From a virus (Duplodnaviria; Caudoviricetes), in the IMG/VR virus record IMGVR_UViG_3300028591_000009, positions 42,603 through 106,602 of that record: a DNA stretch of 64,000 bases. One strand, written 5' to 3'. The position numbers and the translations under genes are program-made. Every line of letters begins with the position of its first letter. Position 1 is the first letter of the stretch. A model generated the notes under the pieces. That model saw only the letters and a program-made list of their open reading frames with translations. It searched no databases and was not told the origin of the DNA. Of this stretch, positions 12,883 to 44,900 are shown piece after piece.

Positions 12883-13557
12883 TTACTCGTTAGATGTATG
12901 AACGTTAATCACACTCGTAGCGCCACCATTAAGGATGTCCTTAATCTTGACATTATCCATCTTGGAGTCGTTCCACTCCTTAGAAATCTCATCTGCTTTC
13001 TTATCGTTCTCGACGATAGCGCCCTGGATGTTCTGCTTCATCTTGTTCAGAGCTGACATCAGCATGTCAATGTTCTTGAGTTCAGCGCGGTTAGCGTCGT
13101 TCAGAACCTTGGCAACCTTCTTAGCGTCCAGGAAGAAGTTCTCACCCTCAGCGTGAATAGCAGCCTCGATTGCATCTTCGATGGGCTTCTCGGTTACAAC
13201 TGGATTAACACCGTTGTTGAGCGGGAAGAACAAATCACGAGTGCCATCGGGGCGAGCATTGATAGAGATACCTACCTGCTTAGCCTCACCGATACCTACT
13301 GTATCGAAGCAAGCACCAATGATATCCTTGGTACGGAGCGTGTACTTGCGAGGAGAACGATTGGTAATCAACAGAGCAACACCAGGAGTGTTTGCCTGCT
13401 TCTTGTCGTTCTCAAAGCCTTCCTTGCCGCCGGCCCAGATTTCCTTCATTTCAACTTCAGTGTAAGCTTTGCCTAGCAAAGCACCAATAAGACTAGCAGC
13501 CTGACGAGTGCTAGGGATGACGTTTGAAATATTAACGTCGATAGTTTTTTCTGCCAT
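12883..13557 (-). CDS. Hypothetical protein with C-terminal coiled coil
   Basis: ATG at 13557 (MAEKTID) after an A-rich leader; strong codon bias. Confidence 0.75.
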   Translation of the reverse strand: MAEKTIDVNISNVIPSTRQAASLIGALLGKAYTEVEMKEIWAGGKEGFENDKKQANTPGVALLITNRSPRKYTLRTKDIIGACFDTVGIGEAKQVGISINARPDGTRDLFFPLNNGVNPVVTEKPIEDAIEAAIHAEGENFFLDAKKVAKVLNDANRAELKNIDMLMSALNKMKQNIQGAIVENDKKADEISKEWNDSKMDNVKIKDILNGGATSVINVHTSNE

Positions 13558-13624
13558 TTTTCTTTCCTTTTTGATATCGTGGTTGATCCACCAACGAAAG
13601 ATTAATAATTCCTGCTTCAAGGTG

Positions 13625-15745
13625 CAGGTTTACCTTGTTTTATATAAGTTTTACATCCGGCTCGGTGGCTCTACTAGATGTTGACGTTAGACGGTTATTG
13701 TGATTTCAGTTGCTGTGCTTACGGGAAGCACGCTTCTATTAGAGACTAGTTACACTTCTATATTCCTTAAAATGAAGCTCAACTCATGTAACGGGAATCC
13801 AACGGTAGGATTATCTAAGCCCATCATCTCAATAGGTTCGAAAACTTTGAACGCTGAATATGTGTATCAAACACTAACCCTATTTGTCGGTATGTTTATA
13901 TTTTCGTAAACATTTATTAAATTTATATTAAATCCAATATTCACTTTTTTCGAGTCCGTTGGCAAAATTTTGGAATTATCCAACTAATGTTCATAGGACT
14001 CACCACAAAAATTTTGCATAGTTTCTCTGTTAGTATATTTCCCAAGTACCTTAAGAGTTAACTACACTACGATTGTCATTTAACCACAGATTTTCTCTCC
14101 TGTTGCATGATTTAAGGCTCATACTACTATTACCTTTCCTTGTTATTTCAACGTGCTTGTGTTTACCTACGTAAGGATTACGTTTCTTTATCGAACAATC
14201 TAAGAGCTCCATAACTCTTTTCAAGTACTACGATTTAAAATTCTTCCTAGCGATTCTACGGTACTAAATATTTCTTCTCTTGGATGTGTTTACTCACCCT
14301 CATTATTTATAGTGCACGAATACTGGAGGAATTCCACCTCATACATCGCTTCTTGTCACCCACTTAATGTTCCGCTTCATCGAGTCCTAGTTTCACAAAC
14401 TATCCCAAATGCAACTGGTTGTACGGTTTGCTACTTCTATTTCCTTTACCCCTCCGAGACAGGGAGGTGATTTCACTTCGCGATAAGCTGCCCATCGATT
14501 AAATGTATATGACTTCATGGTCTCTACCGAACACATAGATTTGCTGTCTATGCTCTGATAGGATTCATCTTGTCTATTTGCTTCTCAGGAACGGTTGGCA
14601 CTCGATTTCTGGCGTGAAAGCACTCACAAACATTACAAACGGAGTCTTTCGTTGATATACAACATTAATTTCTCCCAGCCAGGGGACATCAATTTTTGTT
14701 AAACATGTTAATTATCTCTTTTGTTTTCTACTACGTATTATCTTCGTTAGAATCTTCTCCCGATAAAGTATAACGGTATATTGTATACAGTTCGTCATCT
14801 AACTATCATCTTACTTTCGAAGGAAGCGATCTCTCTCTATACTGGAATGTATAGGCTTCGAATCGACCACCTAGATAAGAAATTTTTGGCTATCTAGTAA
14901 CCATCTAAAACGCATTTCCTCATCCTTCAAACATAATACTCGCTTACCAGTACTTGTTATCAATTGAAATAGAGTTTCTCCGCGCTCTTCATCCGCGTAC
15001 CATAGGCTCCAGAACCATATGGATTAAGTGGCGCATCCACTTGTAGTCATTTCCTCTTATATCCCGCACAAACGACTAAAGCCTGGCGGTCATCTTCATC
15101 ATATTTTCCTCTGTACCCCATCCCTGGCACCCCTTCAACGGAGTTGTGCACGAATCGAACGGCAAGGATTTCTCCAAGGACCGTAGTTACGGTACGGCGC
15201 AGACAGTCACACCTTCTGCTAGGCGAATATACTCAGATATTTTTCATCCCTTCATACACGTTGTGGAGACGTGGAACACTAGACTACAGCTTAAAGTTGA
15301 TACATCATTGAGTGTTTTGGCTTCAAACTCAATGTTGCGACTCCTGTTTCGTTATGCTATCCTTATGTATCATCAGATAGTATGTCGAATACGGTTCAGT
15401 TTTGCCCATCATTCGGGACTTATGCGTCTTCCTTACTAATACCCCACACTTCAAAGAGTCTGGCAAGAGCATAAAGGACTCTGCTGGTATATATTAGTGT
15501 TAGGGTCTGATACATACGCTCACCCTACTTACTATAAGCGATTCGATTATGTAGTACGCATAAAACTTATAGCATTTCATCCTACCTTTTGGATTTCTCA
15601 CCATTTGAGATGGCTAACATATTCTCGGATCAAGTTGTACTATTCGCATTCTAAGGTTGATGAGACCTACTCCGTAGACGAATGCTGACGTGTGCCCATC
15701 GGGCGGGGAATGTATGAATCCTCATACATCCCCCATGCACCGGAG
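13625..15745 (-). ncRNA. Candidate very large non-coding RNA / ORF-free structured tract
   Basis: No minus-strand ORF of 60 aa or more over 2.1 kb between co-oriented genes; several hairpins; strand inferred from flanking genes. Confidence 0.45.
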
Positions 15746-15748
15746 TGA

Positions 15749-16231
15749 CTAACGCTTGTAGACTACCTCACCGTCGACTGTGAGGCAAATGGACGCTTTA
15801 GGAGGTCCAACAGTGTCTGGGGTGTACTCCTCGCGAACCCCACGTACTTTGTTGTTAACAATACTATCAGGAATTATAGCTGGTGTGCTCAACCCCTGAC
15901 GTTTTATTGTGGCACGAGCAGATGTACGCTTCTTCTTGTACACTAGGTTCTTTACTCTCGGAGCTTGAGATGTGTCCTTAACAACCACTATTTCTAGTGG
16001 GACATACTCTTTCTCCGTTTTGTTCTGTCTCTCAACTATAGGTTGAGTGATAGATGGCAACGGCAATGCTCGATAATCGGGCAGCGTTGCAGCGTTCAAT
16101 GTCTGATGCTTGCGCATAGACATCTCATTGTTCTCTACCTCCGCTAATGACCACCCTGCTAGGGCAAACAATAGCGAACAAATAATTGTTGTAACTAGTT
16201 TCATACCTTTGATAGATTTCGAAACTATCAC
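15749..16231 (-). CDS. Membrane-anchored or secreted hypothetical protein (TAG stop)
   Basis: N-terminal hydrophobic segment. Confidence 0.65.
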   Translation of the reverse strand: MIVSKSIKGMKLVTTIICSLLFALAGWSLAEVENNEMSMRKHQTLNAATLPDYRALPLPSITQPIVERQNKTEKEYVPLEIVVVKDTSQAPRVKNLVYKKKRTSARATIKRQGLSTPAIIPDSIVNNKVRGVREEYTPDTVGPPKASICLTVDGEVVYKR

Positions 16232-16236
16232 ATCAC

Positions 16237-17628
16237 TTAACCCTTCTTCTCCTCAGGAACAGGAACTTCAACGAGATTGCTCTCCTTGTAGTTGATAGAC
16301 TGAGACAGAGGATCGGTGAACATGTTGACAATAATGCCAGCACGCTGCTGAACATTCTTCAGCAATGCCTCATTAGTCTCATCATCAAGCTCCTTACCCT
16401 TGAACTCAGGATAGTAAGTGTCAATGATATTACCAACCAGACGGTGAGCAAGTTTGTACTCCTCAGAGTCAGTCTTGTCAGACTTGTAGTTGTCAATCAA
16501 AGCGTCTACTACCTCGAATGAAGGATTGGTAGTTTCTGTGATAATCAGGTTCAACTCCTCGATGGCGGTCTCGTTTGCACGAATAGCAGTTTCAGTTGCT
16601 ACCTTTGCAGCGCCCTTCTCGTTCTCAAGATGCTTCTTCTGCTCCTTGATAACTTCGTTGCACTCAGCTATTCTACTGTTACATGACCACAGTAAGAGAA
16701 TGCGAACGATGTCAGCCACGTACTGATCGTCAATGGTATTGTCCTTCTCAGGAACGGCACTGCGACGATAGAGGCAGAACGACGAAATGGGACTTCCAGT
16801 CTCAGCGGAACGCTTGCGAAGAAAGTAAGCAGTGCCAGTCAATGCAAATGGGCAAGGACCAACAATCTCTGCTATCTCATCCAGCAACTTCTGGCGAGAC
16901 TTATCCTTAACTTCGTTAACGGCAGCCGTCTTGTCCTCAGTAGCATTGGCCTGGATGGTCAAATAGCCACGATAGAACTTGATGGTACGTTGTACACGTG
17001 CGTCTGGGCGATCAATACCGTCAGAGATAGGCTTTACGAGCATGGCTGTGAGAGATGCCTTTAACTGCTCAGGAGTCTTTATCTCCGCAGGATTGCTAAC
17101 TGCCTTGGCGACAGATTCCATTTCCTTCTTTTTGCTTTTGATGGTCTTTTCAGACACGTCCTTCTTGTCAATTGTAACAACACGTGTCTCAGCTGGAAGA
17201 AGGCCAACAACACCTGCCTGTTTGAGCTGTTCCTCTGTAGGAGCAGGAAGCATCTTGAACTCAGGAAGCTTAATTCCGCGCTCAATTGCCATACCCATCA
17301 AGGCGTTGTAGTTGTTCTCGTTAGCTGTGATGATAAGACCAGCAACACTGTTGCCAGATGCTATCTCAGTAATAGCGACATCGAGGATTGATACTTGTGC
17401 AAGCATGGTGAGACCATCGATAGTGCACTGAGAAGGCTTCTCGGTATTGGTCATCAAGAATGCACGTTCGTTTTGTAGTGCGCCAATATAAGCGACTTTA
17501 TCGCTCTGGCTCATACCCTTTGTGTTAGGGTTATTGTTTACAGGAAACTTCACTGTAGTATTATTTTCAGGAGCTCCCTGTGCTTCTGCTGCTGCTGCAG
17601 CTGCAGAAGTCTTGTTGTTTTTTGCCAT
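16237..17628 (-). CDS. Hypothetical protein, 463 aa
   Basis: Long ORF with TTATCAAAATG leader. Confidence 0.8.
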   Translation of the reverse strand: MAKNNKTSAAAAAAEAQGAPENNTTVKFPVNNNPNTKGMSQSDKVAYIGALQNERAFLMTNTEKPSQCTIDGLTMLAQVSILDVAITEIASGNSVAGLIITANENNYNALMGMAIERGIKLPEFKMLPAPTEEQLKQAGVVGLLPAETRVVTIDKKDVSEKTIKSKKKEMESVAKAVSNPAEIKTPEQLKASLTAMLVKPISDGIDRPDARVQRTIKFYRGYLTIQANATEDKTAAVNEVKDKSRQKLLDEIAEIVGPCPFALTGTAYFLRKRSAETGSPISSFCLYRRSAVPEKDNTIDDQYVADIVRILLLWSCNSRIAECNEVIKEQKKHLENEKGAAKVATETAIRANETAIEELNLIITETTNPSFEVVDALIDNYKSDKTDSEEYKLAHRLVGNIIDTYYPEFKGKELDDETNEALLKNVQQRAGIIVNMFTDPLSQSINYKESNLVEVPVPEEKKG

Positions 17629-17711: not shown

Positions 17712-18125
17712 TCAAGAATCGTCTACAATTTCTACACTGTTTGGCGGGTTTGGCAAAGCGTGTAGGTATAGTCTATGAGTCACCCCACAGACATCACTTA
17801 AAGTCTGGTTAGGCTCAACCATATCAGGCGTATAATCCTGACTCACAAGGCTTGAAGTTACCTTCACTGGTGTTGTATAGTCTACATACTCAGGAATACA
17901 TACGAATGTTCCCTGTGTAGCCAACAACCCTTGTGTGGGGTACGCCTGGTTGAGCATGACCTGACTTTGTTCCTTCTTTTCGATTGCCTTATGAGCAATC
18001 GTTCCTACTGTGAAAGCTAATGTATAGCTTACAAATAGGGCCCAGAATACTTTGTTGCTATTGTTGTATCTTGCGATACCCAATATAAACAGTGTTCCGA
18101 GAATGAACAATAAAGCTACTGTCAT
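17712..18125 (-). CDS. Two-TM membrane protein coupled to the sigma gene (anti-sigma candidate)
   Basis: Two N-terminal hydrophobic helices; ATGA overlap with sigma stop. Confidence 0.55.
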   Translation of the reverse strand: MTVALLFILGTLFILGIARYNNSNKVFWALFVSYTLAFTVGTIAHKAIEKKEQSQVMLNQAYPTQGLLATQGTFVCIPEYVDYTTPVKVTSSLVSQDYTPDMVEPNQTLSDVCGVTHRLYLHALPNPPNSVEIVDDS

Positions 18126-18685
18126 GATTGTAATTTTAAACGTTGTCTTAACTTACGTCTAGTCCTGGAGAGCGTGGATTTTATAGTTCCTACTGGTACT
18201 CTAGGATTAAACGTCTTACTAATCTCTTCTACGGTTAAATTATCTACATAAAATCTTTCAAAGATCTTACGAGTGACCTCTGGAAGTTTCTCAAACTCAC
18301 GAAGTAGTTCCTTATACGTCAGATGATTGACTAAGTCATCTTCAGCACAAGCCTGAATATTGGAGTTTAGTCGGTCCTCCTTTATATCAGCTACTTGTTT
18401 GTTCTTTATACTACGCAAATAATCAATTGCAGTTCGATTAGTCAATATTCGCAGCCAACCCCCAAAGGAGTCGTATGCTACAAATTTCGAGAGTTTATCA
18501 TGCACTTTAAGAAAGACAATATTTGCCACTTCTTTAGACTCGTCCATATCTTTTAGATACTGGAACAAAAGACTCTCTACAAAGCCTTTATACTTGTAGT
18601 AAAGTGCATTAAAAGCAAGCTCATCGCCTGCTTGCGCTTTTTTGATTAAGTCAACTTCAGTTGGGGTGATTCTAGGATTCTTCAT
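18122..18685 (-). CDS. ECF-type (sigma-70 group 4) RNA polymerase sigma factor
   Basis: LIKKAQAGDELAFNALY, region 2 SFGGWLRILTNRTAIDYLR, region 4 LTVEEIS...VPVGTIKSTLSRTRRKLR. Confidence 0.9.
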   Translation of the reverse strand: MKNPRITPTEVDLIKKAQAGDELAFNALYYKYKGFVESLLFQYLKDMDESKEVANIVFLKVHDKLSKFVAYDSFGGWLRILTNRTAIDYLRSIKNKQVADIKEDRLNSNIQACAEDDLVNHLTYKELLREFEKLPEVTRKIFERFYVDNLTVEEISKTFNPRVPVGTIKSTLSRTRRKLRQRLKLQS

Positions 18686-18787
18686 AATCAAAAACAATTT
18701 ACTCGGTTTATTAAGGTGTCACTCCTGTACGCGGAACCGAAACGCTTAGTGGGCAGTGGGAATACCAATCCCGTTAGGTTTTCTGCC

Positions 18788-19760: not shown

Positions 19761-19762
19761 AG

Positions 19763-19836
19763 TGATTCCTGAACGATTCGAACGTTCGACCGACAGATTA
19801 GAAATCTGTTGCTCTATCCAACTGAGCTAAGGAACC
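19763..19836 (-). tRNA. tRNA-Arg(UCU)
   Basis: Full cloverleaf; anticodon arm ACAGA-TTTCTAA-TCTGT. Confidence 0.93.
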
Positions 19837-19900
19837 TTTTGAGGCGTTTGTTTTTATAGTGGTGTCAAGCGAGCCTCTGTAAGCATGTCCACAACATTGG

Positions 19901-19946
19901 AATGAGTGCAGGCTTCGAACCTGCCATAGTTCCGTTATTACTCATT
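19901..19946 (-). ncRNA. Mini tRNA-like element (acceptor + T arm only)
   Basis: AATGAGT/ACTCATT stem stacked on GCAGG-TTCGAAG-CCTGC with a 15 nt linker. Confidence 0.6.
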
Positions 19947-20262
19947 CACCGTTCACAGGCACTTAGGTAGCCTGTACACCGACTTCACGCTGCCTCCTGG
20001 AGACCCGTGTAGTCTGCAATGTTATAATTGCCAGTTAATTTTTATATCGAAGCGCTTAACGTCTTACTTTCCGCTGCCGTCAAAACCATTCAAGCCCAGA
20101 TTAAAAGCTCCCGCCTCTATCCTCTGTACACCTTCTTCAGTGCCAGCGAGTACACAATTCAGGGAGCTTGGAGTGTTAATCAATAATACACGTGGACCTG
20201 GGCGGAATCGAACCGCCGTCCGAACAGCATATCCTAGGACACGCTAAGATTTCACTTGTGAA
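19947..20262 (-). ncRNA. ssrA: Circularly permuted (two-piece) tmRNA
   Basis: T arm + CAGGTCC-A (ends 20193) lies upstream of GGGCTTGAATGGTTTTGAC (starts 20097); G3-U70 pair; P2 pairings; tag frame 20032-19985 = GNYNIADYTGLQEAA*; outer ends approximate. Confidence 0.88.
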
Positions 20263-20736
20263 CCTCACAATGATCAGTTGTAAGATTCGATTTAAGGCTA
20301 TTTACAGCCTCTCTGACGCATTTTCTATACTCTTGTGGGTAGCTAATCCTCTGGAGTATATTAAACGCTTAGAATGGCTTTTTCATAAACCTTTATTTGT
20401 AGTACATTGCCCTGACTGACTCTCTGGTTCTTGCAGAATATACTCGCATTCTTGATATACAACGCGGTAGCTGCTTCCCTTAATGAAGGTTGACCGCTCA
20501 CAGTAGCACCGGTTCATGACTCATACGTCGTAATTGTTGATCTAATGGCAGCATATTATTACACCGTGCTGACGGTGTTGATTTTCGCACGTGACTCAAA
20601 GGTTCTTGTGTATGTGTCAATTCACATAAAGCAGACTACTTCATCCATACCAGGCGCAATGCCATTTTTACATTTTTCGACTGCTTATACACCACTGATT
20701 CTAGGATTCTGGGTGAGTGAAAATCATATAATGGGA

Positions 20737-22963: not shown

Positions 22964-23085
22964 ATTGTATGTATTTTATAGTGAAGATTGTAGTATACGG
23001 GGAAAAGATATATGCTCTTTAACTCGGGTAAAGTAAAAATGGTACACCCTACAACACCACCGTGTTGATTATACTACAATCTTAG

Positions 23086-23157
23086 TAGTCTATAGCAGAG
23101 TCGAACTGCTCTTTACAGAATGAAAATCTGTCGTCCTAACCGATAGACGAATAGACC
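23086..23157 (-). tRNA. tRNA-Glu(UUC)
   Basis: Cloverleaf; anticodon arm ACAGA-TTTTCAT-TCTGT. Confidence 0.92.
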
Positions 23158-23235
23158 AGGTGCCCCTCCGCTGAGGGGCTAAATTAAAATCATCATGACT
23201 AAAAGTAATTAAAACGGATTTTGCCTTCACAGGTG

Positions 23236-23309
23236 TGGACCAGCCTGGGCTTGAACCAGGGACCCTCAGATTATGAGTCTGATGCTCTAACCAACTGAGC
23301 TACAAGTCC
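23236..23309 (-). tRNA. tRNA with CAU anticodon (elongator Met or lysidine-Ile2)
   Basis: Cloverleaf; TCAGA-CTCATAA-TCTGA; paired 1:72 and no GGG/CCC anticodon stem, so not initiator. Confidence 0.9.
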
Positions 23310-31978: not shown

Positions 31979-32013
31979 AAAGGTGATTTTTAAGTCTATT
32001 ACTTGTATCTCTC

Positions 32014-32514
32014 TTAATTATTTCGTAAGCTTCTAACCAGGCCTGGTCTTCCAAGCATTTTTTCAGCGTGGTATACGTACTTTGTGCATTCTGTTTCTTC
32101 GTATTCTCCATCTTCGTTGATCGTCATATGAGTGAATAGTTGTTGTTTTTTCCAATTATTGTAGATATTGAATGCCTGTTTCTTTTCGTGTTTGCCGGAG
32201 TATTGATGTATACAGTTTAACATTCTGTGTGCATCTACACATCCGCAAGCTCTTATACAGCATATATCGTCAATAAAAGATTCAACACCTTCATCTCCGT
32301 ACTTGTCTTTGATGATGTTATATTCAGCTCTTGCTTGTTGGAAGTATTTGTTCTATTCATCATAATCTGGTTCTAAACCTAGGATAAACGCACTGTTTAT
32401 GGGGATTCCGTGAATATAGAAATACTTACAATTGTCAGTTACTGGCTATGATATATCTTTTAAGCTTAAGAAATCTGAGTAAAATAATATGGCATTCAGT
32501 TCTATATGATTCAT
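32014..32514 (-). CDS. Hypothetical protein, 166 aa under code 15 (2 in-frame TAG)
   Basis: ATG at 32514 overlaps the upstream stop; frame interrupted only by TAG. Confidence 0.75.
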
Positions 32515-32927
32515 ACTTTAGTCCAAGTTCTATAAATACATTCCGTTACCCATCCCAATAAGTAAGCGAATAATTCATTACTATCGTCCTTGAATACTTC
32601 TTCTCCAATCTTGGAGTATATTCTCATACAAACATGTAAAGCCTCATGAGCACAAGTATTTATTAGATCTACATTCTTGTCTATACCCTTTACGTTTGTA
32701 TCATTACAATATTTGACTAGTATTATAGCTCTATTAGTCTTTCTATCATAACCAGGCTGAGTAAAAGCTAAAGCATCATCATCTTCAAAATCTTGTTCTT
32801 GAATAGTCATATAACGCTTATTTATCTGTGCTATGGTAGTATACTTATTTGCTACAACTATATCAACGTTGTATACAGTTGGGTATATATCTATTATACT
32901 CTTCTTCTTAGTCTTACTATTCTTCAT
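32511..32927 (-). CDS. Small HExxH protein (putative zincin-like metallopeptidase)
   Basis: CAHEALH...NELFAYL motif. Confidence 0.65.
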   Translation of the reverse strand: MKNSKTKKKSIIDIYPTVYNVDIVVANKYTTIAQINKRYMTIQEQDFEDDDALAFTQPGYDRKTNRAIILVKYCNDTNVKGIDKNVDLINTCAHEALHVCMRIYSKIGEEVFKDDSNELFAYLLGWVTECIYRTWTKV

Positions 32928-32984
32928 GTATATATAATTATATATAATATATATTAGGGGGTTCTTAGGGGGAATTTTGGCTTA

Positions 32985-33066
32985 TTAACGTAAAAATGGC
33001 AAAAACAGTTGCATTTTGAAAAATTTTATACGTTTTTGCAACCATATTTCGCCAAAGTTACGTTAT
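32985..33066. promoter_or_regulatory. Divergent pair of ECF-like promoters TGCAAC-N16/17-ACGTTA
   Basis: Plus copy 33037-33065 and minus copy 33013-32986, located at the strand switch. Confidence 0.65.
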
Positions 33067-33095
33067 GCCGTCGAAATTTGAGAAAAACAAATAAT

Positions 33096-33512
33096 ATGAG
33101 CAAAGTATTAAGAGTAATTGATCCATTTTTCGTAATGGAGATTGGAGATACATTTGAACTCTCTGAAGACGGTAAAGAGTATGTTTCTCATCACAGCGAG
33201 GAGTTTCATACTGCAAAAGAAGATAGTGAAGTTAATTCTACTTACGATTCAGTATTCAAGATTTCTCTGAAGTGGGCACAGCAGCTCATTGAGGATGGAT
33301 ACCTTGAGGAAGTAGAGGAAACTCCAAAGAACGCTACTCCTTTTGTGAACGTATTCGACGAGATTGATAGATTGATTGACAAGTACCAGAAAGAGGCTAA
33401 TGAGCTCAGCAATAGCAAAGAGTTGATTCCAGAATGCCTGAAGGTTGAGAAGACAACAGTACTTACAAACCTTCTGAGTGTACTTAATTATCTTAAATCA
33501 TTGAGAAAATAA
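33096..33512 (+). CDS. Hypothetical protein
   Basis: ATG at 33096 (MSKVLRVID). Confidence 0.75.
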   Translation: MSKVLRVIDPFFVMEIGDTFELSEDGKEYVSHHSEEFHTAKEDSEVNSTYDSVFKISLKWAQQLIEDGYLEEVEETPKNATPFVNVFDEIDRLIDKYQKEANELSNSKELIPECLKVEKTTVLTNLLSVLNYLKSLRK

Positions 33513-33928
33513 TGGACGAGAATACAAACATTATAGACCAATCGCAGCTTGCAGAAGATGTTGCTAGTAAGATTAAATACAGTTTCTTCGATCATTTTCT
33601 GATTAAGCCGCTGGATCCGGTCAAGGTTAAGAAAGAGTTTAGTAAACCTGTCACTAACGGTGTTCCTACCAAGGACGCTGACGGTATTGAAGCACAAGAC
33701 TTCGATAAAGTAGAGACAGAGGTTAAAGAAGTTGATTCTGATTATTTGAAGGGCGTAGTCATTAAGCTTCCTTTGTATTATGAAAATGAAAATGCACAGG
33801 ATGGTACTTACAAGAACATCAAGCCTGGCGATATTGTAGTATTCAGAGCTACAGCAGGTCTTGGTTTTGATCTGATAAAGAACAGTCGACTTATTAGACT
33901 CTACGATATACTTGGTATAGAAAAGTGA
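33512..33928 (+). CDS. GroES/Cpn10-like co-chaperonin
   Basis: DHFLIKP...GVVIK...IKPGDIVVF...IRLYDILGI pattern with a long mobile-loop region. Confidence 0.65.
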   Translation: MDENTNIIDQSQLAEDVASKIKYSFFDHFLIKPLDPVKVKKEFSKPVTNGVPTKDADGIEAQDFDKVETEVKEVDSDYLKGVVIKLPLYYENENAQDGTYKNIKPGDIVVFRATAGLGFDLIKNSRLIRLYDILGIEK

Positions 33929-34140
33929 TCGACATAGAGAATGTTATAAAAGAAGTTTCAAAGAGAACTGGTGAAGACGTAGATACAGTAGCAATGGTAT
34001 GTAAGCATGTATTTAATCAACTGGTAAAGATAATGAAGGACGATGAAGACACTAGAGACATACTATTAAACCACTTCATGAAGTTCAAATTGAAACGTAG
34101 ATATAAAGAAAACAAATCTAAAAGTTATACAGTCGTATGA
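33925..34140 (+). CDS. HU/IHF-like small DNA-binding protein
   Basis: VIKEVSKRTG...VFNQL...ILLNHFMKFKLKRR pattern. Confidence 0.55.
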   Translation: MIDIENVIKEVSKRTGEDVDTVAMVCKHVFNQLVKIMKDDEDTRDILLNHFMKFKLKRRYKENKSKSYTVV

Positions 34141-35128: not shown

Positions 35129-35203
35129 TGTCCTATGGTGTAGTGGTAGCACAGGAGGCTCTAACCCTCCAGGTCCGGGTTCGATTCGATGGTAGGACGA
35201 CCA
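35129..35203 (+). tRNA. Amber suppressor tRNA-Gln(CUA) with encoded CCA
   Basis: TGTCCTATGGTGTAGTGGTAGCAC tRNA-Gln-type body; GGAGG-CTCTAAC-CCTCC with anticodon CTA at 35161-35163. Confidence 0.9.
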
Positions 35204-41900: not shown

Positions 41901-44900
41901 TGTCTTTCTGTAAACAGCACGCTTGCAGACTTCCGTGGTACTACTGCTGATAATAGTGGTCGTCAATTCGATAATGTTATACTTGGTTCAAATGAAGATA
42001 ATACAAGTATTGGTTGGGAAGAAGACTTTGAATTGGTATACCCAGAGAAAGAGGAAATTACCACATCTAAACAATTTGACGCCAATAAGTTTGTAGCTAC
42101 TGTACAACCATTTACGGAATGGTTGCGTTGGATCATTGGTACTTATCATAACCAAGCGCAGTTTGAAGCTACTGCAGCACAACACCTAGACCTTTATAAG
42201 ATGGCTGCTTATTACATCTTTGTATTGAGATTTGGTCTTGTGGACTCATTGGAACGTAATGCTCAGATTAAGACGTACGATGGTAAACACTTCCATTATG
42301 AGCCTTGGGATATGGATATCGCATTAGGTAACCGAAACACTGGCGGTATTGCATTTAATCCTCCTATCGACCGTAATACGATGATGGATGCTACTACAGG
42401 AGCTATTTCTGGTAGATCTGTTATTGATACAAACAATGACGATGTTCCCGATACTACAGTATCTAACTGGCTGTTCGATGCTCTTGAAGCATGGCCATAT
42501 TGGATGAATACTATTGTTCCGAAGGTAGCTGATGCTATGTATAAGCAGGGTCTTACGTATACAAACGTAATTAACATGCTTGATGGACAGTATCAGGATG
42601 CCTGGTGCGAAACAATCTATAATGAGACTGGTAACTTCAAATATGTTGTAAACCGTCAAAACGTAGATAGCAATGGCAATATTCTATCTGGATATGATGA
42701 TAGCTGGTTGTCATGGTTACAAGGAGCTCGTACAACTCACCGTCACTGGTGGTTGAAGACCTCTATGGACTACTACGATGCTAAGTGGGGTGTAGGCGAA
42801 TTTATGGAGAAGAACATGTACATCGGTTGTGAAATGCACAATGTACAAGGATCTATAAACATTGTTCCTACTTCTTCTACATATTTCATGTTTGAACGTG
42901 AAGCAACTAAGTTTGGTCCATTTGCGGCAACTGTAGACGATCCTTTAGAGTTTGATGTATCTTCTATTAACTCTGGTGCGAAGGTTCCGTTTAAAATGTA
43001 CGGCGCCAACTTTATCAAAGAGATTGATATTAGCGACGTAGCAAGCGGCCTTCAAGTATTTTCTATTGCCAACGCATTCTCATCTGAAGTAGGACCTGTG
43101 ATAACCAAAGTAAATATTGGAGTTAAGGTTACTTAGCAAGATGCAAATACATATACAGGCCAAGAAAATAATAAAGAAATTTAGATTGCTGCCGGTAGTT
43201 CATTGAATGCTATAGAAGAATTAAATATTCGTGGACAACGTAGTTCAGGTCTACTCGGTACTGGTCGTATACAAGGTCTTGATTTTATAGCTAACACAAA
43301 GACTATTAAGAAGATCTATGCTATGGGTGCCGGTATGAATACACTCAATAGCTGTATAGGTACAGACTTTGATACTCTTGAACTTCCAGATACCATTTCT
43401 TCTATTACATTTAATAGTACTACTTGGGATCCAAATAAATTATCGTTCTGGCATACTACATCTGGTGGTTATGTAACTAGAACTTACACTGATTATAAAG
43501 TAGACGAACAAGGCGAGGTAGTTTATGAGAACGGTGAACCTGTAATGGAGGAGTACACTGTACAGGAAATGAATCCTGCTACATATACAAAGTATGATCT
43601 CGACGATGCTCAAATAGGAGTATCTATTCCTAGAGGATTGTTAGCGGTTCGTATGACAGGTACTACTGGTAAAAATGCTTGTGCTAGACAGTTTGTTGTA
43701 GACTGGATCGCTTCTATTATCAAATGGGGTACCGAAGATTGGGATAACCAAGAAAACGGTGCAGATGAATACGCATCCCTCGATGAATATTTAACACATC
43801 TATTCAATGAGAGAACTCTTTCTGTAGAGAATATATATTGGAACAATTCAGCAATTCCTGGTTTGAGTTATGAACAACTTACTTGGATTGCTAAATTTAA
43901 TAATATAGATTATTCTCAACAATATACAACTCATCCAAACATAACTAATTTTTCTAGAGGTTATGTAGTACTTACAGATACTAATGCTCTTACTGGTATT
44001 CAAACATCTTATTTGTCTACATGGTTTGGTGAAGGTGTATTTGTATTAAACAGTAGTGGTCTTGTAATCGATCAATAGTTAGAATATACAACCATATCTG
44101 TAGGTCCTGCCGCATATGTAGAAAATAACGAAATATATATAAAAGAAGGTACATCTGCAAGAATACAGGCGACGAAGTTTAATCTTAGACCATCATTATC
44201 TTCTACAGAATTTTAGCTTTCTGCTCCAGATTCACAGCTATCTGCATCATCTTATAGAGGAACTAGTATTGTTTCTAATAGGATAGGCGTAGGAGATGAA
44301 GTTATTTATTATCTAAAAGCCGATCCATATGTTACTGGATAGGATTATGATGTTAGACTTGCAAGTGGTTCTGGTAGTGTTATTATCCATGTAAAAGCTT
44401 TAGATTATCCAGAACAAATATTCTTAAGCATACAAGGTAATAAAAAGTTAGATGATAGTGGTTCGAATACAGATTTCTACAAATATGATAAAGGCTTTGA
44501 TACATTTGTATTAGGAAACTAGGCTGGTCCATTCTTAGTTGGTGTACAATTTAAAGAAGGCGATAGATGGGTGAATACTCCATCTAACGATACAATTAAA
44601 CCTTCGTATGCTAAATTTAAAGTATATAAAAATGATGTACTTTGTTCTAGATTTGAGTACGGAATAAATTATACAGACTTTATACAAGCAGGACTAACGA
44701 CAACTACTTTTGTAGATCAAGCAGACACATCTCTATCTTACATTACTGGATATAAACCTACATCAGACATATACAAATATTTTATCCCACTGAATGTAGA
44801 AAGAACTGTTCAGCAAGAACCGTTAAAATATAGAGTTGATTGTGAGATTAAACTTGGTGGTATGATTACTACGCTTAGCGCCAACATTATACTAATTAAG

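Follow-up and report, generated by a model that had tools for sequence, protein, structure and literature searches.

We propose that a stretch of about 2.1 kb in the early gene arm of a gut crAss-like phage encodes a giant structured RNA. The stretch lies on the minus strand of the 64,000 nucleotides analysed here (the window; positions 42,603 to 106,602 of IMG/VR record IMGVR_UViG_3300028591_000009, Caudoviricetes), and the whole candidate locus runs over ~2.14 kb, from the base after the upstream gene's stop codon to the last conserved hairpin before the leader of the downstream gene (13611-15748). We are confident that this tract is a conserved element acting at the RNA level and read from the minus strand. 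By analogy with known large phage RNAs, we further propose, with a probability of roughly 0.6, that it would be a single or nearly single giant RNA acting in trans, a tertiary-folded scaffold or ribonucleoprotein (RNP) core of early or middle infection. The RNA is specific to the crAss-like family Suoliviridae, where it is kept at one fixed syntenic spot. A preliminary description, made from the letters of the window, had suggested one large structured RNA or an array of RNAs, a suggestion now supported by compensatory base changes, a bias toward G-U pairs, the absence of a period-3 signal and the absence of a conserved open reading frame (ORF).

Comparisons by blastn and nhmmer find conserved blocks of the tract in crAss-like relatives. 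Patchy blastn blocks of 75-81% identity extend across the whole tract in eight phage records, all of which have at the same position a 2.0-2.2 kb gap that is unannotated or spuriously annotated. The nearest named relatives are cr130_1, cr131_1, cr272_1, cr273_1, cr7_1, cr124_1 and a Bohxovirus (Suoliviridae, Oafivirinae), and Dulem virus 42, an unclassified relative, also matches the window. The order round the gap is ECF sigma factor, small ORF, ~470-aa protein, ~150-aa protein, gap, ~200-aa protein and ~190-aa protein. With an 18-nt pattern taken from one conserved block, 92 IMG/VR loci were collected, among which a profile search recognised 68 full-length homologues of 2.0-2.3 kb; the alignment used throughout holds 29 representatives including the window, with less than 93% mutual identity and 52-81% identity to the window. 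Profile matches by nhmmer cover 13565-15709, and a clade-specific 5' junction reaches 15748. A search for related loci that used the neighbouring 463-aa protein as its single query gave no match.

With the ECF sigma factor as a marker, we located the corresponding gaps in the other subfamilies: 2152 bp in cr56_1 and 2147 bp in cr4_1 (Loutivirinae), 2481 bp in cr1_1 (Boorivirinae), 2080 bp in cr6_1 (Bearivirinae) and 1920 bp in cr118_1 (Uncouvirinae). Syntenic gaps of 1.9-2.5 kb are thus present in all five Suoliviridae subfamilies, with sequence homology in four. Colinear nhmmer matches to core blocks occur in cr56_1, cr4_1, cr1_1 and cr6_1 (E 1e-19 to 1e-3); within the gap of cr118_1 the match to the GAGAACCGUCUGG block is only marginal (E 0.017), and homology in Uncouvirinae was set aside for that reason. 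By colinear homology at the sigma-linked syntenic position, the tract belongs to a 2-kb RNA family of Suoliviridae. In sequence, its conservation far exceeds that of the neighbouring proteins: 318 of 2055 alignment columns reach 90% conservation or more and 140 do not vary at all, whereas the 463-aa protein is only 22-33% identical to its RefSeq relatives by tblastn, and for the 463-aa and 224-aa neighbours identity to the IMG/VR homologues is mostly 20-37%, with 57-66% only in the nearest relatives (66% for the 463-aa protein). In a scan of bacterial genome contigs, no bacterial chromosomal copy was seen; the 73 pattern matches were about what chance would give, and the only 5 true homologues were all on phage-like contigs. 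Phage-sized contigs bearing the RNA sit in metagenome-assembled genomes of Segatella copri (L106, L167), Bacteroidaceae (L162) and Lachnospiraceae (L143, L161), a placement that reflects either binning noise or a weak hint of the host (Segatella/Prevotella twice) and gives no reliable host call.

The gap on which the preliminary description drew is real, with a shifted boundary. It had been placed at 13625-15745, next to a downstream gene listed as starting at TTG 13620; this TTG is spurious, because relatives keep a hairpin-plus-leader motif that ends just before ATG 13557 (MAEKTIDV...). The downstream gene therefore starts at ATG 13557, and the true gap between the flanking genes is 13558-15748 (minus strand, ~2.19 kb). 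As had been observed, it holds no minus-strand ORF of at least 60 aa, the longest being 57, 47 and 47 aa; the largest ORF on either strand (97 aa) is on the plus strand. Because the phage has a suppressor tRNA, we re-read the gap with TAG as glutamine (the code-15 check), TGA as tryptophan and TAA as glutamine, and no ORF opens.

A protein gene hidden by recoding, introns or decay is nonetheless worth weighing, since the anticodon of the suppressor tRNA is CTA and both TAG recoding and group I introns are known from the 'delta' group, to which Suoliviridae correspond (PMC7886860). Against such a gene, column entropy in the RNA alignment has a power at 1/3 of 2.0 times the median, as compared with 93 times for the adjacent gene from the same loci, so there is no period-3 component and no codon periodicity. 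The longest sense frame has a median of 72 codons over the 29 representatives, no Rfam intron family is matched even at E up to 10, and the ORFs annotated on the antisense strand of cr7_1 and Bohxovirus lack conservation and have no counterpart in the window. We regard a hidden gene as barely credible, and decay, which the preliminary description had left open, is effectively excluded by the missing period-3 signal and the lack of a conserved ORF.

The case for structure rests on the relatives, because one sequence alone folds no better than its shuffles. The minimum free energy of the sense strand is -275.5 kcal/mol as compared with -268.5 +/- 6.2 kcal/mol for shuffled sequences (z = -1.13), so that "hairpin-rich", as the tract had been called, does not go beyond chance for the single sequence. 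Among the aligned relatives, we scanned all alignment columns against all others for helices with an RNAalifold-type covariation score, taking stacks on parallel diagonals as the control, and 22 antiparallel stacks score above the best control. Over the whole RNA, counted segment by segment, 226 consensus pairs are paired in 89.9% of cells (37-43% in slid controls) with 933 double-change cells (155-186 in slid controls), and compensatory changes occur in 133 of the 226. Two or more compensatory pairs each are present in 26 helices, which occur all the way from 15669 to 13565; near-invariant single-stranded blocks join the local multi-helix domains into which these helices fall.

The best-supported domain (15015-15296, minus strand), assessed with RNAalifold and the same measures, has nine helices, including a three-way junction that encloses a T-loop-like hairpin. 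Its 39 pairs, 29 of them with compensatory changes, are formed in 93.9% of cells as compared with 73% in shuffles and 38-45% in slid controls; double-change cells number 218 as compared with 63 and 25-48, respectively; and the covariation score of 0.612, against ~0.1, is reached by 0 of 500 shuffles. The T-loop-like hairpin itself (15148-15164, minus strand) has a 5-bp covarying stem with all five pairs changed on both sides and the loop UUCGAUU, and a hairpin CUAUAC/GUAUAG (14839-14852, minus strand) has four pairs, every one with double changes. These two are among the pairings that the preliminary description had listed, and both are kept by compensatory changes in relatives. All of its pairings are present at about the places given, including the hairpin 15734-15705 and ACTCCG (15746-15741) with CGGAGT (15674-15669), and their fates among the 29 representatives differ. 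The hairpin 15734-15705 is kept with different sequences, only within the window's own clade; the ACTCCG/CGGAGT pairing is not conserved; CATTGAGT/ACTCAATG falls in a variable insert; and at CTAGATA/TATCTAG covariation falls on an adjacent helix (14903-14887) instead.

The strand of the element can be read from its pairs. Helices were chosen by a strand-symmetric criterion, and G-U pairs outnumber A-C combinations by 160 to 52, and several pairs are G-U in most sequences; therefore the folded strand is the minus strand, the sense of the flanking genes. Folding of the antisense strand gives z = +0.48, and the sense strand folds 40 kcal/mol better. The G-U bias also bears on whether the tract could act as DNA, that is, as a replication origin or as a hairpin-bearing site for packaging or recombination. 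Such a role would suit a large non-coding tract of the replication and early arm, with PolB 4 kb downstream, but an excess of G-U over A-C is unexpected for duplex DNA sites, and the tract lacks iterons or other repeats: searches for tandem or direct repeats found no meaningful ones, in agreement with the preliminary description. The cumulative GC-skew minimum is elsewhere, at 32-34 kb of the window, where the leftward early and rightward late arms diverge, which makes 32000-34000 a likelier place than the RNA tract for replication to start. The direct terminal repeats that form the genome ends lie away from the tract, which is single-copy in the complete 106.6-kb virus record that carries them. 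A DNA-level element is accordingly very unlikely, and an origin, which had been entertained earlier, is made unlikely by the skew minimum together with the G-U bias.

Whether the folded RNA is one molecule is the harder question, and several observations weigh against a single giant RNA. Every supported helix is local, with a span of at most 101 nt, and antiparallel stacks that span more than 120 nt are neither commoner nor stronger than the parallel control, so that a single global fold is conjectural. The folding z-score of the single sequence, as given above, is not significant. The family-wide conserved loop GAGAACCGUCUGG has been swapped out in the window's lineage. The A+T-rich linker at 14090-13880 is a possible boundary between a ~1.65-kb 5' RNA and a ~0.27-kb 3' domain, and these parts could be one molecule, two or a string of modules. 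A sigma-70 scan of the tract stayed below shuffle expectation, and no promoter could be recognised; terminator-like sites are only weak, and the one at the alignment position of 13628-13611 scores in only 4 of the 29 representatives. Finally, the scaffold role is proposed by analogy only, with the GOLLD and ROOL RNAs. Long-range helices predicted by RNAalifold, such as a 9-bp pairing of GAAUAUGUU with AACAUGUUU across 958 columns, score zero or below for covariation and are not claimed.

The main rival reading is that smaller structured RNAs or modules, independent of one another, form an array, for example of processed small RNAs or clusters of protein-binding hairpins. Such an array would explain why the covarying helices are all local while long-range stacks show no excess over the control, why an unstructured A+T-rich linker interrupts the tract, and how one module could be exchanged in the window's lineage with the rest kept. 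It would also fit the several small Rfam RNAs held in crAss-like early regions, RAGATH-9 and RAGATH-20 in cr56_1 among them. We nevertheless consider an array rather unlikely. Block order and length are strictly colinear in all homologues (2.0-2.3 kb in the Oafivirinae type, with gaps of 1.9-2.5 kb across the subfamilies), and no gene or mobile element has ever been inserted between the modules. Unpaired, near-invariant stretches that link the hairpins are what a single tertiary fold typically shows, and no internal promoter-like or terminator-like site recurs at a fixed alignment position, the 3' end excepted.

Alternatively, the tract might act in cis as a very long, structured intercistronic leader, setting the timing of the early genes downstream, their stability or their translation through, for instance, antitermination or processing. 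Both neighbours share the strand of the tract, no promoter belonging to the tract is recognisable, and a covarying hairpin and leader motif stand directly before the downstream ATG. This hairpin and its ACGAUaUCAAAAAGGA leader (13558-13601, minus strand; a 9-pair helix, six pairs with double changes) belong to the expression signal of the downstream gene and not to the RNA, from whose body the leader is separated by the conserved hairpin 13628-13611. The most conserved blocks are 1-2 kb from the downstream start, and leaders of such a size are not known to us from bacteria or phages. A leader role for the whole tract therefore seems quite improbable. The 9-bp hairpin followed by ACGAUAUCAAAAAGGA before the downstream ATG is kept in nearly all relatives, and an exact-motif search finds this to be its sole copy at 0 mismatches.

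For the giant trans-acting RNA that we favour, the following course of events can be proposed. The tract would be transcribed with or within the leftward early/middle operon, and the RNA would start right after the upstream stop codon and end at the hairpin 13628-13611. In the infected cell it would act in trans, as RNA or as an RNA-protein scaffold. Its invariant joiners and loops would be tertiary contacts or binding sites, the candidates being the T-loop, an (A)ACCGU(U) motif and a block containing GUGCAC. The 5-mers ACCGU, CCGUU and AACCG are the most over-represented in the RNA family (~4 per RNA as compared with 1.5 expected), with eight sites in 13565-15709 (minus strand), several of them inside conserved blocks, and these recurring words may be a repeated contact or binding motif. 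That the whole 2.1 kb is one RNA forming a defined three-dimensional machine, whether a ribozyme, an RNA-protein particle or a self-assembling cage, is a tentative extension and somewhat doubtful. Such a machine may be tied to the take-over of translation by the phage, an idea suggested by the tmRNA, tRNAs and ECF sigma factor of the same early arm and the TAG suppressor tRNA of the genome.

The tract corresponds to no catalogued RNA that we could find. We ran cmscan with the 4227 models of Rfam 15 at gathering thresholds, at E <=10 in the window and at E <=1 in 12 relatives. At gathering thresholds there is no match in 13558-15748, and only two sub-threshold matches appear at permissive E. 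One is RAGATH-18-like (14370-14459; 23.6 bits as compared with a threshold of 44.9, E 0.27) and absent from five close relatives; the other is sR7-like and below threshold. Both are attributed to chance. The covariance models for GOLLD, ROOL, OLE, HEARO and raiA match neither the tract nor the 12 relatives; there is no Intron_gpI or Intron_gpII match, and the flanking ORFs are separate, complete genes in all relatives; and neither Rfam nor ARAGORN finds rRNA, RNase P RNA, tmRNA or tRNA in 13558-15748. The preliminary description, which had recognised no intron, RNase P or rRNA signature, is borne out on this point. In a full-text literature search no description of this RNA was found, the only mention being that some crAss-like genomes have regions without recognisable proteins (Yutin et al., 2021; PMC7886860).

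The closest parallels are GOLLD and ROOL, large "ornate" RNAs of phages and prophages that form RNA-only multimeric assemblies as seen by cryo-EM (PMC12286853). Like the tract, they are phage-encoded, non-coding and very large, with covarying helices joined by highly conserved unpaired blocks, and their function is likewise unassigned. They also have tRNA genes nearby; here, tRNAs and a tmRNA are 4-8 kb upstream, and cr4_1 and Dulem virus 42 each have a tRNA 1.3 kb downstream. Unlike them, the tract matches neither in sequence nor in structure, is well over twice their size at ~2.1 kb, and differs in host range, as it belongs to crAss-like phages of gut Bacteroidota; for the tract, a multimeric assembly or a single global fold would be conjectural. 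OLE, a ~600-nt ribonucleoprotein RNA of Bacillota (PMC12054373), is similarly large, highly conserved and multi-helical, and it has dedicated protein partners where the tract has conserved flanking genes. OLE is chromosomal whereas the tract is phage-borne, there is no Rfam match between them, and no homologues of OLE partner proteins are seen near the tract, whose flanking proteins match no family or fold. With rRNA, RNase P RNA and group II introns the tract shares its kilobase scale, its invariant single-stranded blocks between covarying helices and a T-loop-type hairpin; the T-loop module is common in large structured RNAs. It differs from this class in having no intron-encoded protein, no flanking exons and no supported long-range helices.

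The RAGATH RNAs occupy the same early arm of related crAss-like phages, but they are 70-170 nt long and outside the giant RNA. In cr56_1 (Loutivirinae), RAGATH-9 (120.7 bits, L101:1-144) and RAGATH-20 (101.8 bits, L101:791-888) both score above the Rfam thresholds and lie a few kb upstream of the sigma factor. These two Rfam motifs thus count among the early-arm RNAs of crAss-like phages.

In a survey of the human gut (Yutin et al.; PMC7886860), no group of crAss-like genomes was larger than Suoliviridae, also called the "delta" group. These phages spend ~2% of a tightly packed genome on the element and conserve it better than the proteins around it. Large, intricately folded RNAs of bacteria and phages are rare, and several have proved to be ribozymes, RNP cores or unexpected RNA-only assemblies (PMC12286853). 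As a single transcript, the tract would have well over twice the length of the largest ornate phage RNAs known; a 2-kb example would stretch the size range of large folded RNAs of bacteria and phages several-fold and offer a new target for structural biology, and it also points to an unknown step in crAss-like infection. If it is one folded 2.1-kb RNA, it would surpass in size every structured non-ribosomal RNA known from viruses, and it would come from one of the most common phage families of the human gut. We know of no cultured Suoliviridae model.

From 5' to 3', all on the minus strand, the locus opens with a three-way junction (15650-15748) that begins right after the upstream stop codon and, by comparison of the 29 representatives, is confined to the window's clade. 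It consists of a conserved TCACTCCG, the long hairpin 15734-15705, a small hairpin and an outer stem GCAUUC/GAAUGC; this stem encloses a conserved hairpin (15669-15653, loop UCuCAUUA) whose helix 15669-15663/15658-15653 has four pairs with double changes. The family-wide blocks GAGAAUAUGUuA and CAAAAGGUAGgAUGAAAU (15574-15626), with nhmmer matches also in Loutivirinae and Boorivirinae, flank a covarying hairpin with the stem variants CCAU/AUGG, CGCU/AGCG, CCCU/AGGG and CUCUG/CAGAG. Most family members carry at 15431-15500 a hairpin whose loop is the conserved GAGAACCGUCUGG, in place of which the window and four relatives (L052, L051, L056, L025) have an unrelated, longer stem-loop. Closer relatives of the window (L018, L077, L012) keep the canonical module, and the replacement shows modular evolution.

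Downstream of the best-supported domain, the central conserved region (14533-14641) has hairpins at 14641-14625 and 14553-14533 and the block GAGUGCCAACCGuU (14603-14590); this block and a hairpin of the region recur in Loutivirinae and Boorivirinae. At 14304-14363 a small hairpin is surrounded by the near-invariant blocks GUGGGUGAcAA and AaUAUUCGuGCACUAUAAAcA, which are present in cr4_1 as well; a predicted enclosing helix is invariant in sequence and hence without covariation. The conserved blocks of the locus also include CAAAAGGUAGGAUGAAAU and GAGUGCCAACCGU. The poorly conserved linker (13880-14090) has zero consensus pairs (alignment columns 1560-1735). The preliminary description had called the tract not AT-rich, which holds for most of it (G+C 0.36-0.46) and fails for this 3' quarter (~14090-13880, G+C 0.33-0.36). 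The 3' domain (13732-13874) comprises the hairpin 13874-13862 (loop UUGAU), nested helices at 13845-13732 and a hairpin AAUCC-UACCGUU-GGAUU, and a block of it recurs in Bearivirinae cr6_1 (E 8e-6). The conserved hairpin at 13611-13628, whose helix has covariation support, is followed by an A/T-rich run; this terminator-like site is the candidate 3' end or terminator of the RNA.

The genes around the tract are all on the minus strand. Downstream is a conserved neighbour of 224 aa (12883-13557), aligned among relatives; upstream are a 160-aa protein with a hydrophobic N-terminus, a TAG stop and no Pfam or PHROG match (15749-16231), a 463-aa helical protein conserved in the module (16237-17628) and the phage ECF-type sigma factor that marks the syntenic module (18122-18697; Pfam Sigma70_r2, Sigma70_r4, Sigma70_ECF). 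A tblastn search with the sigma factor returned 35 phage records, with Suoliviridae in every record whose taxonomy was read. Apart from the sigma factor and PolB, the Pfam and PHROG scan of the neighbours found no family. AlphaFold models of the 463-aa and 224-aa proteins (pLDDT 77-78; 78 for the latter) gave no fold relative with Foldseek, only a long helix being matched, and none for the 224-aa model with VIA-align. The flanking proteins have no usable atlas neighbour, and neither family nor fold searches hinted at an RNA-binding partner.

Other small RNAs accompany the element. A permuted tmRNA lies at 19894-20284 (minus strand; Rfam tmRNA_permuted, 64.5 bits; tag peptide GNYNIADYTGLQEAA by ARAGORN), and the same early arm encodes tRNA-Arg, tRNA-Glu and tRNA-Met at 19762-19836, 23085-23157 and 23235-23309 (minus strand). 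Two of the homologous loci (L075 and L077) have the same tmRNA upstream of their giant RNA. The suppressor tRNA with anticodon CTA (35129-35203, plus strand), labelled tRNA-Pyl by ARAGORN, is consistent with the recoding of TAG in late genes of this phage group; the early-arm genes round the RNA still end in TAG.

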